Below, one piece after another: positions 2,664 through 16,589 of a stretch of 21,550 nucleotides of DNA. Location: NCBI GenBank assembly GCA_025057345.1, contig JANWXX010000016.1, positions 1-21,550 on the forward strand, in the 5' to 3' direction. The position numbers were made by a program, and so were the translations under genes. The stretch's first letter is position 1. Every line of letters begins with the position of its first letter. A model generated the notes under the pieces. The model had not been told where the DNA came from, searched no databases, and saw nothing but the letters and a program-made list of their open reading frames with translations. This stretch comes from Polyangiaceae bacterium. GTDB lineage: Bacteria; Myxococcota_A; Polyangia; Polyangiales; Polyangiaceae.

Positions 2664-3293
2664 ATGGGAAACGATCAAGTCTCCGAGACGAGTAAGAAGT
2701 TGTCGTGGCTGTTGAGGCACGGGGCGGGGAAGGCTGGGCTCTCCATGGATGAGGCGGGGTGGGCGCCGGTGGAGGAGGTGCTAGCAAAGCTGCAGATCTC
2801 TCGGGAGCTACTGGTTCAGGCAGTAGAGGAGAACAGCAAGGCAAGACTAGAAATGGCGGGTGGTCGGATTCGTGCTTGTCAGGGACACTCCCTGGAAGGG
2901 ATGCCAGTCACTCGGGAGGCTTTGGAGGCGTCCTGGAGTGGGTATACTGGTGCTGGGCCGCTATGGCACGGGACGAGCGTGGATGCGGTTCCGTCGATTC
3001 TACGAGAGGGGATCCTGGCGGTTGGTCGTACCCACGTCCACTTGGCGGAGGCGACCGATAGCAAGGTGGGCAAGCGGGCTCGGGTTGATATGCTGCTGGA
3101 AGTATCCGTCGCAGGATTGAGGGCGGCCGGTCTAGGTATCTTCCGGAGCTCCAACGGTGTTCTTCTGGTGAGGTACGTACCGCCTTCCTGTTTGGTTGGG
3201 GTGATCGCACAGACTCCCTCCTGGCAGGTGCAAGCATCTTGGATAACTCGTTCTCGGTGTTCAGCTCACCCAGCCGATTCGAGCACCTCGTAA
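2664..3293 (+). CDS. kptA: RNA 2'-phosphotransferase, Tpt1/KptA family
   Basis: The SKKLSWLLRHGAGKAGLSMDEAGWAPVEEVL N-terminus, the IRACQGHS motif, LWHGTS and HVHL are the conserved Tpt1/KptA blocks. A GGGAG RBS lies 5 nt upstream of the ATG. The C-terminal ~30 aa may be a read-through extension. Confidence 0.8.
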   Translation: MGNDQVSETSKKLSWLLRHGAGKAGLSMDEAGWAPVEEVLAKLQISRELLVQAVEENSKARLEMAGGRIRACQGHSLEGMPVTREALEASWSGYTGAGPLWHGTSVDAVPSILREGILAVGRTHVHLAEATDSKVGKRARVDMLLEVSVAGLRAAGLGIFRSSNGVLLVRYVPPSCLVGVIAQTPSWQVQASWITRSRCSAHPADSSTS

Positions 3294-8216: not shown

Positions 8217-10013
8217 TTAGCGCGGCTTCTGGCCTTGTGCTGGGGTTCTCTCCCAGCGGATCAGCACTCCATCTCGTCCTGCCGAAAGGAGCCCCCCTAC
8301 CTGAGACCAGCTCACCGCCGTCACCTCGTCTGTGTGGCCCCTCAGCTCCTCCACCACACGCCCGGTTTTCAGGTCAACTCGTCGGATCACACCATCCTGG
8401 CAAGCCGTTGCTGCGCTCCCTCCCTCGGGAGAGAGAGCTACTGACCACAGGCGCCCTCCAGGGAGGTCGATTCGGAACAGTCGCTCCGCGAAGCGCGCGT
8501 CGTACACCGAAAGGCCCCCCGTCTCTCCGCAGAGTAGGAGGGCTCCGTCTAGGGAGAAGGCCAGCGACCAGGCGGTACCTGAGGCCAACCGGCGCCATCT
8601 CCCGCGGCCATCCCCTAGGAAAATGTGCCCCTCCGCCGCTATCGCTGCCGCTTCGCCCTGGACCGTCAGCGCGCGACAGCCTACCAAACCTGGCTCCGTT
8701 GGTGTCATCCTCGGGATGATTGCTACCCGCCTCGTTCCCAACCCTAGCGTGGACATCAATGCCGACAGCGGCAACGACCATCGGCCGACGCCTCCCTCGT
8801 CCGCCACGAGCAGCGCGCCTTCCTGGAAGGCTAGCCCCTGGATCGCCCCAACCCCTTTCCCCTCGGCTCGCAGGTTTCCTCGCTTCGCCCCCCATAGCCT
8901 GACCAGGCCATCTTCCCCACCGGTCGCTAGCAAGGTCCCATCCGGTGACCAAGCTACCGTGTATACACCTCCCCCGTACTGTCCCATAGTCCATAGCCGC
9001 TCCCCCTCGGCGGTGTACACAGACGCGCTTCCGTTGCTGTGGCCAAGGACCCAGCGCCGACCGTCCGGCGACAGTGCCAGGGCCTCAATGCCTGGGTTCC
9101 CCACCTCTACCCGGTGCCTTGCCTTCGCCTCGGGCAGCCCCCACAGCACTACCTCTTGGTCTTCTCCTGCCGAAACGAGGCCAGCCCCTCCCGCTACGAA
9201 GGCGAGTCCTCGCACCGTGGCACGGTGCCCCTCCACAGCCCCCGCGTAGGTACCTCGCCTCCTGTTAGTAGGGAAGTTCCATAGTGCTACCGGCCCCTTC
9301 CGGTAGCCGACGGCTAGGCGCGGTGTGGACGGATCAAGGGCTAGCGCCGAGGGGATGCCGGGTTGGGGCTCCAGCTCGCCAGCGGGCTGGCCCTCCGGTG
9401 TCCAGAAGCTTATGGTACGCCCATGTGCGGCGATCACCAGGCCCCGCGGAGAAACCCGTAGGCAGGTGGCCTGAGCGGGAAGCTTCACCCGAGCAAAGAC
9501 TTCACCGGGATTGGTGATGAGATCCAGAAATAGCAGCGCCGCCTCCCCCGGTGAGGTTCCGCAGGCACATGCCAGGAAGGTCATCCCCGGGGCAAAGGCC
9601 AGCGCAACGGGGGTTGAGGCGAAGGATCGTGTGAGATGAGGGCCATCCGGGGTGCGAAGGGCGAGGTCACCCTCCGGAGTGACCCAGGCAGCCCACGAGG
9701 CATCCGGAGCGAGCGCCACTGGGCCCGAGGTGAGAGCTGGTCGCGGGGAGGCCAGAGCGGTTCCTGGGCCTTCCAGCAGCAGGCCTGCCGGTGTGAGTAC
9801 GGCGATCCGACGCCCATCTTCGCTGGCGGCAGCTCCTGCGCAGGGGAAGGTACGACTCCAGGCGGGGTGGTGTGCCCCCCAGTCCCACTCCTCCAGTCCA
9901 CCAGGGGACCACCTGGCGAAGCCCCGTTCACTCGCCCAGAGTAGCCCGCCCAGGCGCCCTCGCAGCAACCACCGGGGGGCAAGGGGCCGAGCCGGAAGAG
10001 AAGTGTTCGTCAT
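8217..10013 (-). CDS. WD40 / beta-propeller repeat protein
   Basis: SPDG-, GH..-, and WD/WS-ending blades recur every ~40 aa (LALSPDGRRWVLGHSNGSASVY, VAWSPDGTLLATGGEDGLVRLW, LRGHTDEVTAVSWS, RDGVLIRW). Its ATG overlaps the upstream ABC ATPase stop (ATGA). Confidence 0.8.
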   Translation of the reverse strand: MTNTSLPARPLAPRWLLRGRLGGLLWASERGFARWSPGGLEEWDWGAHHPAWSRTFPCAGAAASEDGRRIAVLTPAGLLLEGPGTALASPRPALTSGPVALAPDASWAAWVTPEGDLALRTPDGPHLTRSFASTPVALAFAPGMTFLACACGTSPGEAALLFLDLITNPGEVFARVKLPAQATCLRVSPRGLVIAAHGRTISFWTPEGQPAGELEPQPGIPSALALDPSTPRLAVGYRKGPVALWNFPTNRRRGTYAGAVEGHRATVRGLAFVAGGAGLVSAGEDQEVVLWGLPEAKARHRVEVGNPGIEALALSPDGRRWVLGHSNGSASVYTAEGERLWTMGQYGGGVYTVAWSPDGTLLATGGEDGLVRLWGAKRGNLRAEGKGVGAIQGLAFQEGALLVADEGGVGRWSLPLSALMSTLGLGTRRVAIIPRMTPTEPGLVGCRALTVQGEAAAIAAEGHIFLGDGRGRWRRLASGTAWSLAFSLDGALLLCGETGGLSVYDARFAERLFRIDLPGGRLWSVALSPEGGSAATACQDGVIRRVDLKTGRVVEELRGHTDEVTAVSWSQVGGLLSAGRDGVLIRWERTPAQGQKPR

Positions 10014-14397: not shown

Positions 14398-15363
14398 CTA
14401 CCAGCGAGCACAACTGAGGCATACCATGGGGCGCATCTCCTCGCGACGCAGGGCCGTCCAGGTGGCCTCCCCCGCTTGCCCCTCGTAGCGTTGTGCCAGT
14501 GCCTTGGCAGCTTCCTCGATCCGGACTAGGCGGCGCTGGAGATAGCGAAGGTGCTCCTTCTGCCACTTGTCGAGTGCTCTCCCTTCCGGTGAGGAGGGGG
14601 GACAGAGGGGAGAGAGATCCCGGAGATTGCTGGTAAACGCCCGCAGCTTATCGGCAAGCGGCTTCAGGGTGCTTTGGCAGCCATCCTGACACTCCCGAGG
14701 GAAGCTTTGCTCTATCTCCTCGATCTCCCTACGCATCTCGCGGAGGAGCTCTGCGAGGTCGACTCCTATCTTTCGGTACTTCCCTACTTCGAGAGGGGGT
14801 TCCAGCGAGGGAGGGGGTTCTTCTGGAGGAGGGAGTCCTGGGCCCTCGGGGGAGGGAGTCAGTGGGGTACCACCAGCAAAGGCCTCAGGCATCAGGGCGG
14901 TAACAGGTGGAGGAGCGGTGCCGCCTTGGCGCTCACACCCTGCCAGCACCGCGAGGGCGGAGGAGAGAAAGACCGCACGGCGCCGGAGGATCTGTTCCCG
15001 ATCGTTCATCGAGGGGATACTGTACTGCGACTGTCGTAAACCTCGGTAAAGGATCCAACGCTCTCCGAGAGGCCCCTGCCCAGGTTCGAGGCGATAGATC
15101 AGTGCATCGCGGGGAGGACGGAAGCCCTCGGGGCAAGGCCTTAGTCGGACGGACGTAGGCTCGACCCTAAAGATCTGGGCCAGCAATGCACGGGCCTCGT
15201 AGGCCGAGGGGGCAACGGCAAACACCGGGTCATCGGGAAGCTGAGTTCCACCGAGGGTTTGAAGCTGGAAAAGGAGGCCTGGTGTAGCCACAGCGGCAGC
15301 CTCTAGCACAGGCTGAGGCTCGGTAGGTGCTGCTGCAATCGAACCATGCCTCCGCTCGTTCAT
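14398..15363 (-). CDS. Cys-containing envelope protein of unknown function. A lipoprotein-type signal is embedded at residue 119, giving an alternative start at 15009.
   Basis: The internal MNDREQILRRRAVFLSSALAVLAGCERQ is a textbook lipoprotein signal (RRR n-region, lipobox L-A-G-C). The C-terminal part has a Pro-rich linker, a coiled-coil stretch (LAELLREMRREIEEIEQ) and Cys motifs (RECQDGC, LCPP, CLSC). Confidence 0.5.
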   Translation of the reverse strand: MNERRHGSIAAAPTEPQPVLEAAAVATPGLLFQLQTLGGTQLPDDPVFAVAPSAYEARALLAQIFRVEPTSVRLRPCPEGFRPPRDALIYRLEPGQGPLGERWILYRGLRQSQYSIPSMNDREQILRRRAVFLSSALAVLAGCERQGGTAPPPVTALMPEAFAGGTPLTPSPEGPGLPPPEEPPPSLEPPLEVGKYRKIGVDLAELLREMRREIEEIEQSFPRECQDGCQSTLKPLADKLRAFTSNLRDLSPLCPPSSPEGRALDKWQKEHLRYLQRRLVRIEEAAKALAQRYEGQAGEATWTALRREEMRPMVCLSCARW

Positions 15364-15519
15364 AGCCTGCCCTCGTTACCAGATAAGTCCGCACTTCTTG
15401 TGGAGCGCCCGAGAGGAGCCACCTTGGAATCTTCTACCCAGTCGCCGGTTGCGGCCTGACCGAGAACCCATGGGAGGTGTAGCCTGACAAGGTAGCCGGC
15501 TGCTTTTCGTGATTGACTG

Positions 15520-15540
15520 TGTAAGGCAGACTGCCTTACA
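15520..15540. promoter_or_regulatory. Perfect 10-bp inverted repeat TGTAAGGCAG-a-CTGCCTTACA; a putative operator for the adjacent XRE regulator
   Basis: The palindrome is read directly from the sequence. It lies in the divergent intergenic region and abuts the first possible start codon of the HTH gene. Confidence 0.6.
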
Positions 15541-15915
15541 GTGCAGTCCATGGCTTGTCGACCGCACTCGTTTGGGATGTTCATCCGAAATCAGCGGATT
15601 GCAGCAGGGCTGAGCCTGCGTGAAGTTGCCCGGGGGATGGGGATCACGGCGGTGTACCTAGGGGAGGTGGAGCGTGGGGTGCGGGGCCCCTTCGTGCGAG
15701 AGCGGTGGATGGATCTGGTGCGGCTGATCCCGGGGGTGACGCTGGATGCGCTGGAGCGCCAGGCAAACCTGTCAGGAGGGGTCAAGATTGATCTGAGCGA
15801 CGCCCCGCCCGAGTACCAGGATCTCGGGCTGGCTCTCGCACGCCGGATTGAGCGCAGGGATCTGGAACCTACGGAAGTGACCTCTCTGCTGAGAATCCTG
15901 CGTGGGGACGCATGA
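15541..15915 (+). CDS. XRE-family helix-turn-helix transcriptional regulator. The likely true start is ATG 15577, or 15550.
   Basis: IRNQRIAAGLSLREVARGMGITAVYLGEVERG is a canonical HTH_XRE (Cro/C1-type). Its stop overlaps the next gene's ATG (ATGA). Confidence 0.8.
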   Translation: MQSMACRPHSFGMFIRNQRIAAGLSLREVARGMGITAVYLGEVERGVRGPFVRERWMDLVRLIPGVTLDALERQANLSGGVKIDLSDAPPEYQDLGLALARRIERRDLEPTEVTSLLRILRGDA

Positions 15916-16586
15916 GTCAGCTCCTCAACGAAACCGTGGTGGCGGTGCCACCGCTGTCGCTTCGAGCGATTGAGGAGCGTGCGGCAGAGATCCGGGCTCT
16001 GCTGGTTGCTCTTACGAAAGTGTCGGGATTGGCCTTGCCCTGGGATGAGCTGGTGGATCGGCACCTACCTAGGGTGGGGCTGCTGTTTTACCCAGCATCC
16101 GCAGCCGAGTTGGGAGATCGGGAAGCAGCCACAGATCCGTCCGGAGAAGAGGCAATCCACATCTTGATGCGTCCGGAGCTCTACGAAGCCCTCACGATCC
16201 GTGGGCCAGGAGGGAACCGGGCCCGAGCTACGGTAGCTCATGAGCTAGGTCACGCGGTCCTCCATGTCCCGTTCCTCCGGCGGCAGCGAGGCCGGGCACA
16301 GCCGTTGACGAGGGTGAGCCGAGCTCAGCTAGCGCCGTTCCGGGATCCCGAATGGCAAGCGTGGGCTTTTGCAGGGTGTCTCCTCATGCCTCGTTCCCAG
16401 CTTGCAGCTATCCGCAAGCCCCCGGAGGAAGTGGCACAGCTCTATGGTGTAAGCATTCCGTTCGCGGTGGCTCATTACGCAAGGCTCCGCTTGCCGGTGG
16501 GGGGGGCTGAGACCAGCCTTGGCTCCTCGCTCCTCTTGGCGCGGGCAGCACAACCGGCTATCGCGCGAGCACGTCGGGCAAGGTAG
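15912..16586 (+). CDS. ImmA/IrrE-family (COG2856) Zn-metallopeptidase
   Basis: The HEXXH motif (VAHELGHAVLH) is followed by the family-typical E...FAGCLLMP block. It is translationally coupled to the XRE gene, as in the ImmR/ImmA and DdrO/IrrE pairs. Confidence 0.8.
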   Translation: MSQLLNETVVAVPPLSLRAIEERAAEIRALLVALTKVSGLALPWDELVDRHLPRVGLLFYPASAAELGDREAATDPSGEEAIHILMRPELYEALTIRGPGGNRARATVAHELGHAVLHVPFLRRQRGRAQPLTRVSRAQLAPFRDPEWQAWAFAGCLLMPRSQLAAIRKPPEEVAQLYGVSIPFAVAHYARLRLPVGGAETSLGSSLLLARAAQPAIARARRAR

Positions 16587-16589
16587 CCC

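Follow-up and report, generated by a model that had tools for sequence, protein, structure and literature searches.

It is established how pairs formed by a repressor of the XRE family and a metallopeptidase of the COG2856 group operate (10.1101/2022.04.27.489752, PMC6868357). The peptidases CapP and IrrE are built of a peptidase domain, a helix-turn-helix (HTH)-like linker and a GAF domain, and single-stranded DNA (ssDNA) is bound between the peptidase and GAF domains (10.64898/2026.05.16.725639). Pairs resembling CapH/CapP have been reported together with ubiquitin-like operons and other defence systems (10.1101/2022.04.27.489752). The contig JANWXX010000016.1 of a Polyangiaceae bacterium (assembly GCA_025057345.1), all 21,550 nucleotides (nt) of which we call the window, carries a pair of this kind: an xre gene, a gene for an M78/COG2856 peptidase, an open reading frame (ORF) for a conserved protein of 194 amino acids (ORF194), and then a gene resembling the one for major vault protein (MVP). 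We think it rather likely that the region is an autoregulated repressor/anti-repressor module of the ImmR/ImmA, DdrO/IrrE and CapH/CapP kind, with ORF194 as its cargo and the MVP-like gene as a neighbour.

Central to this reading are the two proteins themselves. A preliminary description of the locus had called them an XRE repressor and a COG2856 metallopeptidase encoded by overlapping genes, and the family matches (Table 1), the invariant catalytic residues and the predicted fold bear this out, as does the ATGA at 15912-15915 in which the two genes overlap. The peptidase carries the HExxH zinc motif and a downstream glutamate ligand on a zincin fold, as expected of Peptidase M78/COG2856, and T74, T107, H110, E111, H114, H118, E147, Q149, A150, P160 and S181 are invariant in 56 peptidase homologues. 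Its AlphaFold model (predicted local distance difference test score, pLDDT, 89.9; predicted template modelling score, pTM, 0.86) is structured over residues 1-195 and consists of the peptidase domain and a three-helix HTH-like domain, without a GAF domain. The tail from about residue 196, which ends about 30 residues past the HTH-like helices, is modelled with low confidence and is probably disordered. No cysteine lies between H114 and E147, and hence there is no cysteine-switch loop. A profile search of 1.84 billion representatives returned 123 proteins at E <= 1e-30, nearly all of them 190-220 amino acids long and matched from end to end, and the short architecture is therefore the rule in this subfamily.

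The intact catalytic residues, together with the analogy to described pairs, suggest that the peptidase may, when stress is signalled, cleave or otherwise inactivate the repressor. Action without proteolysis is an alternative for the M78 protein, which would then bind the repressor and break up its oligomers, the mode of action reported of Rir/Crh from phage TP-J34, and a mechanism of this sort does exist within the COG2856/XRE group (PMC6868357). However, all zinc ligands and the catalytic glutamate are invariant in the 56 homologues and the extended motif aligns with that of CapP, and we regard a non-proteolytic role as very improbable.

The repressor is conserved over its whole length, including the C-terminal region DAPPEYQDLGLALARR...LL.IL.G, with identities of 82-94% in related loci and, again full-length, of 39-56% in distant loci of the family. 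In the loci examined, both related and distant, an XRE gene lies just upstream of that for the peptidase, and the two genes overlap wherever start and stop were compared. Moreover, the XRE/M78 identities drop together, from 94%/84% down to 39%/43%; the repressor and peptidase genes are thus both adjacent and co-evolving, as is characteristic of XRE/COG2856 pairs. An alternative start of xre at GTG 15541 was rejected, as ATG 15550 is the sole conserved start.

The second pillar of this reading is the control region. At the 5' end of the pair the preliminary description had seen a perfect 10-base-pair (bp) inverted repeat, which is present and is conserved within the promoter of the pair. The repeat, TGTAAGGCAG-a-CTGCCTTACA, is a perfect palindrome of 10+10 bp with a single-base loop, and no other perfect inverted repeat in the window combines arms of 10 nt or more with a loop of 3 nt or less. 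Such a repeat arises somewhere in about 14% of simulated first-order Markov sequences of 21.5 kilobases (kb) and the same composition, and within the 186-nt intergenic region in 0.055% of them. The significance of the palindrome thus comes from its position and conservation, and not from the repeat alone. A consensus scan of 15200-17500 found one sigma-70-like site, TTGACT and TACAGT separated by an 18-nt spacer, and the palindrome takes up this spacer and the first four bases of the -10 hexamer, ending 9 nt upstream of ATG 15550. The xre messenger RNA is probably leaderless, because 7 nt separate the -10 hexamer from the ATG, which has no Shine-Dalgarno sequence ahead of it. A role of the palindrome as a terminator was considered and ruled out, both flanking genes pointing away from it.

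Related loci were gathered from a scan of genomes for MVP (L005), from look-ups of peptidase and ORF194 homologues (L075, L076/77 and L087-L091) and from a scan of metagenomes for the operator (L125). In six aligned sequences (the window, L005, L075, L091, L076 and L087) the pattern TGTAAGGC[A/G]GA[C/T]TGCCTTAC is invariant, and L125 has the same operator pattern and the same promoter layout. TTGAC-like bases precede the operator in the aligned loci, the relatives have TACGAT, TACAAT, TACAAC or TACATC at the position of the -10 hexamer, and ATGGC[T/G]TGTCG follows 8 to 10 nt after the palindrome. Sequence further upstream of the promoter is wholly unalignable in L076, L087 and L091. As judged from these alignments, the conserved block is a phylogenetic footprint of the promoter with its operator, and its placement suggests that the repressor binds the operator within its own promoter. 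The same operator pattern also stands ahead of an XRE gene in L150 whose product is 55% identical to that of the window, and the distant pairs of the family have a TTGAC box followed by palindromes of their own.

The preliminary description had also called for a search for further half-sites near MVP and in the rest of the genome: the 21.5-kb contig, including the stretch 17238-17370 near MVP, holds no second copy of the operator or of its half-site. Of 68 matches in the metagenome operator scan, two adjoin an XRE/M78 pair and 66 are unrelated. Some of these other matches recur. The palindrome GTAAGGCGGATTGCCTTAC lies before an AbrB/VapB-like antitoxin gene in eight contigs (for instance L105 1438-2000), where the gene that follows resembles, by eye, a PIN-domain toxin; because these are unrelated freshwater contigs of 64-68% guanine-plus-cytosine (GC) content, the operator match at the VapB-PIN loci is coincidental. 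The same 19-nt palindrome, here followed by tcaccatatatagcccc.gttg.cagaaga, recurs in twelve contigs of 41-49% GC, twice in some of them, and seems to belong to a repeated element of some unrelated organism.

In the mechanism that we propose, a dimer of the 121-amino-acid XRE protein would bind the 21-bp palindrome between the -35 and -10 hexamers and would block RNA polymerase at the promoter of its own gene. The transcript, probably leaderless, would carry xre, the overlapping peptidase gene and, after a gap of 66 nt, ORF194. On a stress signal, which by analogy may be expected to be DNA damage or phage infection, the M78 peptidase would be activated or given access to the repressor, and the repressor would be inactivated, most likely by a cut in its conserved C-terminal region (the DAPPEYQDLGLALARR region). 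The operon would then be derepressed and the xre-m78-orf194 transcript would rise.

Table 1. Positions of the features discussed, numbered from the first nucleotide of the window.
Feature	Position	Strand	Basis and remarks
-35-like hexamer TTGACT of the xre promoter	15513..15518	+	consensus scan; TTGAC kept in related and distant loci of the family
Operator palindrome TGTAAGGCAG-a-CTGCCTTACA	15520..15540	.	repeat search; footprint across relatives
-10-like hexamer TACAGT	15537..15542	+	consensus scan; 18-nt spacer; ends 7 nt before the ATG
XRE-family repressor, 121 amino acids	15550..15915	+	Pfam HTH_31 1.2e-7, HTH_3 2.3e-6; N-terminal HTH
M78/COG2856 zinc metallopeptidase, 224 amino acids	15912..16586	+	Peptidase_M78 2.8e-7; PADLOC capP 8.9e-11 (best PADLOC match)
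HExxH, H110-E111-xx-H114	16239-16253	+	peptidase zinc motif
E147	16350-16352	+	aligns with the third zinc ligand of CapP
ORF194, conserved protein, 194 amino acids	16653..17237	+	in this clade, no other gene always stands behind the pair
Small conserved ORF (about 90-109 amino acids), divergent from xre	15037..15363	-	kept in all related loci; no family match; 186-nt control region in common with xre
Motif CTGGGCA-N12-TCTGCAA upstream of MVP	17275..17300	+	found also in L005, L125 and L001 (no cassette), with the remaining spacer diverged
MVP-like gene	17371..20163	+	MVP_shoulder 2.7e-23; neighbour, beside the cassette in four loci only (window, L005, L075, L125)

It is evident from the related loci that ORF194 belongs with the pair: it stands behind it in every one of them, with or without MVP, and is likely the cargo of the switch in this clade of Polyangia. 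Its coordinates are those of a 194-amino-acid version, which replaced a version of 215 amino acids on account of its ribosome-binding site and of its agreement with the relatives and with the NCBI gene call. A possible origin of ORF194 as a degenerate paralogue of the M78 gene was dismissed, hhalign giving this a probability of 0.2%. The cargo might also be more specific in kind, the region being a three-component toxin-antitoxin or abortive-type module in which ORF194 is a toxic effector, the XRE protein its repressor or antitoxin and the peptidase the trigger. COG2856/XRE pairs are often found in predicted operons with toxins (PMC6868357), the XRE gene and the homologue of ORF194, ORF192, remain paired where the peptidase gene has been lost, and the module gives weak NCBIfam matches to antitoxins of the HipB type (1e-3) and the spr1629 type (0.01). 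Such a module would overlap with our preferred reading and differ from it only in the role of ORF194. However, ORF194 matches no toxin or defence family, so that the adjacent toxin of a type II system was not found, and the block is chromosomal and vertically conserved with no signs of mobility in the window; we consider a toxic effector quite unlikely.

On the other side of the control region, the small divergent ORF is the first gene of a minus-strand group in which a lipoprotein, a thioredoxin-like protein and orf448 follow. An ORF of 321 amino acids at window positions 14398-15363 on the minus strand, whose lipoprotein part starts at Met119 and has the lipobox LAGC, is probably two genes, one for the small protein and one for the lipoprotein; relatives encode them separately. 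It could be this divergent operon (the small protein of 90 amino acids, the lipoprotein, the thioredoxin-like protein, orf448 and PAP2) that the switch regulates. It shares the 186-nt control region with xre, an arrangement typical of CapH/CapP, and reported CapH/CapP-like pairs stand opposite in strand to their operon and upstream of it (10.1101/2022.04.27.489752); moreover, it is syntenic with the cassette in every related locus. Against this, the single operator has its centre at the xre promoter, some 160-210 nt away from the start codon of the divergent gene, and the consensus scan found no minus-strand promoter-like site in the region. Further, distant members of the family keep no divergent partner and have their variable cargo downstream on the same strand, and synteny within one clade may simply reflect vertical descent. 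Divergent control is, in our view, a decidedly weak candidate.

The distant pairs of the family, in which the peptidase is 38-49% and the repressor 39-56% identical and the repressor gene again overlaps the peptidase gene, reveal how variable such cargo can be. In L085 (5642-10118) the pair lies 33 nt upstream, on the same strand, of a gene for a 767-amino-acid Argonaute with a Piwi domain and of a DpnII/MboI-type nuclease gene. This Argonaute locus adjoins an IS21-type transposase pair. In L185 (5631-8068) and L186 (2061-5154) the pair stands directly before Multi_ubiq, DUF6791-ThiF and BubE, that is, a Bub/6e ubiquitin-like operon. Elsewhere the downstream genes on the same strand encode a 601-amino-acid ThiF protein (L078), a 153-amino-acid protein and a VWA protein (L083), or two small ORFs (L081). 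As gauged from these neighbourhoods, the pair is a portable regulatory module whose cargo changes from genome to genome. Members of the compact GAF-less subfamily, of about 120 representative clusters, precede genes for Argonaute, for ubiquitin-like (Bub) systems and of prophages, and they raise the question of signal sensing by peptidases that lack the GAF half of the ssDNA groove.

Two other members of the family belong to prophage regions, accompanied by an integrase, an excisionase or Mu-like genes, and full-length members with an upstream XRE gene were found in IMG/VR contigs. These occurrences in viral contigs and beside integrases and Mu-like genes would also suit a pair that is the immunity region of a prophage remnant or an integrated element, the other genes of which lie outside the contig. 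The 21.5-kb contig, on the contrary, contains no integrase, tRNA or phage family (Rfam and tRNA scans gave no matches in it), its GC content is uniform, and both flanks up to ORF194 are syntenic in relatives down to 62% peptidase identity, all of which makes a mobile remnant most improbable. The related suggestion of the preliminary description, which would put the pair at the border of an integrated element with which MVP arrived, is likewise unsupported in this form: the window has no integrase or tRNA, and the cassette lies on the conserved side of a break in synteny. In all related loci the block runs from minus-strand orf448, the thioredoxin-like gene, the lipoprotein gene and the small ORF to plus-strand XRE, M78 and ORF194 (M78 being deleted in L087-L089). 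Since the genes on the other side of the cassette keep their synteny with it and what lies downstream is variable, the break falls just after ORF194, and MVP is on the variable side.

The MVP-like gene itself starts at ATG 17371, behind a GGAGGG ribosome-binding site, and its product has the MVP shoulder domain expected of a major vault protein, while among the vault repeats the Vault_3 and Vault_4 matches lie just under their cut-offs. The preliminary description was right in placing it downstream of the pair on the same strand; the gap, which it had put at about 0.7 kb, is 0.78 kb and holds ORF194, with 66 nt between the M78 gene and ORF194 and 133 nt between ORF194 and MVP. Its hypothesis that the vault locus is induced by damage or stress through the switch is not supported, as a dedicated link, by the comparison of loci. 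Among 74 MVP loci collected from GTDB genomes, 64 extend 2 kb or more upstream of the MVP start, and we searched the loci by tblastn and with a family hidden Markov model over all six-frame ORFs. XRE, peptidase or ORF194 genes lie upstream of MVP in one locus of the 64 (L005); the other 63 lack the cassette, including L001, the closest of them, whose MVP is 86% identical. Upstream of MVP in that locus (L001 5954-9896) stand genes for a LysR-family regulator and for an AAA_15/AAA_21 ATPase, the latter of a type common in defence systems. Conversely, the cassette occurs without MVP in two lineages. An unrelated minus-strand gene follows ORF194 in L091, whose peptidase is 81% identical, and in L087-L090 a different minus-strand gene and a metallophosphatase gene follow, with no MVP within 10 kb. 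As the gene behind ORF194 in L091 has no homology to that in L087, a single ancestral neighbour could not be reconstructed.

Moreover, MVP has a conserved upstream motif of its own. CTGGGCA-N12-TCTGCAA sits about 70-95 nt before the MVP start and differs from the XRE operator; it is probably a promoter or regulator site of MVP itself. Inspection of the sequence excluded a sigma-54 promoter, the GG-to-GC spacing being about 19 nt and not 10. The MVP-like gene is thus best described as a lineage-specific neighbour with its own upstream element, and any transcription that reaches it from the switch would at most be read-through. What this means for vault biology is mostly negative: bacterial MVP genes have no general companion in the cassette, which therefore should not serve to infer MVP function unless transcript data are added. 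Two genes distant from this neighbourhood deserve mention. Window positions 8217-10013 on the minus strand encode a 598-amino-acid WD40-repeat protein, for which the model of the second beta-propeller of TEP1, a vault component in animals, scores 3.4e-11 among many generic WD40 matches, and this match looks generic. At 2664-3293 on the plus strand, far from the switch, lies a homologue of the RNA 2'-phosphotransferase Tpt1/KptA (1.2e-36). Bacterial MVP homologues of Myxococcales and other gliding bacteria, of which the MVP-like gene of the window is one, have already been described (10.1101/872010), and the part of that preprint covered here describes no regulator of them.

The switch could nevertheless control the vault gene if transcription from the operator-controlled promoter, induced on repressor cleavage, read through ORF194 into MVP. 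A GAF-less switch resembling ImmA and CapP would then stand before an MVP homologue, with MVP and ORF194 transcribed by read-through only after the repressor has been destroyed. The bacterial vault-like protein would be induced by stress or phage, giving a first regulatory handle on bacterial MVP function. The genes are on the same strand with gaps of just 66 and 133 nt, the window, L005, L075 and L125 all have the genes in the order XRE-M78-ORF194-MVP, and related pairs lie directly before same-strand cargo, such as the prokaryotic Argonaute gene with its 33-nt gap. However, no operator lies near MVP, nearly all MVP loci with sufficient upstream sequence lack the cassette, and unrelated minus-strand genes stand behind the cassette in L091 and L087-L090. 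Further, the upstream motif of MVP is common to the cassette-less L001, and the four loci with adjacency represent two close lineages only. On balance we hold such read-through, whether as a general control of MVP or in the window itself, to be unlikely.

Several points weigh against our preferred reading, in which ORF194 is the cargo and MVP a neighbour. No terminator-like hairpin is predicted between ORF194 and MVP, and the RNA structure of this gap is not unusual (z = -0.2), which also speaks for read-through. ORF194 has no recognisable function. In CapP and IrrE one half of the ssDNA groove is formed by a GAF domain, to which the peptidase has no counterpart, and the operator was sought in this genome within one contig of 21.5 kb. 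Moreover, in L087-L089 (L087 9418-10579) the M78 gene has been deleted between the repressor gene and the homologue of ORF194, with the repressor, the operator, ORF192 and both flanking genes kept, and the repressor must therefore have a role there without a protease encoded in cis. Finally, the analysis is computational throughout, built on sequence features, conservation, catalytic residues, fold and synteny, and it is from these that we infer that DNA is bound, that cleavage occurs, what the signal is and how far the transcript extends.

How, then, does the locus compare with the described systems? DdrO/IrrE of Deinococcus (IrrE being also called PprI) likewise combines an XRE repressor with a C-terminal domain and a COG2856 peptidase, and has a palindromic operator overlapping the promoter of the repressor gene. 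IrrE, in contrast, has a GAF-like domain, and the window has one operator in 21.5 kb with no signs of a regulon within the contig. The genes irrE and ddrO are not known to overlap as a pair.

The likeness to CapH/CapP is seen in the best PADLOC model, capP, in the shared zinc ligands, and in relatives of the pair that precede prokaryotic Argonaute genes and Bub/6e ubiquitin-like operons, the latter as reported for CapH/CapP. The three-domain build of CapP is not found here: both the GAF domain and the cysteine-switch loop, which occurs in about a third of CapP proteins, are missing, and a CapP-type ssDNA groove therefore cannot form in the same way. The pair is also co-directional with its downstream genes (ORF194 and MVP), whereas CapH/CapP pairs are divergent from their operon; a divergent operon does lie on its other side, and neither the cargo nor this operon matches a known defence system.

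ImmR/ImmA of the Bacillus subtilis element ICEBs1, and the phage phi105 repressor with its ImmA, share with the window an XRE gene followed on the same strand by a gene for a short COG2856 peptidase without a GAF domain (PMC6868357). They share as well an autoregulated promoter, in the window a proposed one, and, through the relatives of the window pair, an occurrence in prophages. In the window, by contrast, there is no integrase, excisionase or mobile element around the pair, similarity is confined to the HExxH core, the likeness to ImmA being one of description and not of direct comparison, and the peptidase, of about 200 amino acids, has an extra N-terminal part and the three-helix HTH-like domain. 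Overall, the locus is a new representative of the known XRE/COG2856 switches, with an architecture like that of ImmA, a fold closest to that of CapP and a chromosomal location in this clade, and offers a cleanly footprinted switch in which the operator, the promoter and the probably leaderless start are conserved across seven related loci.
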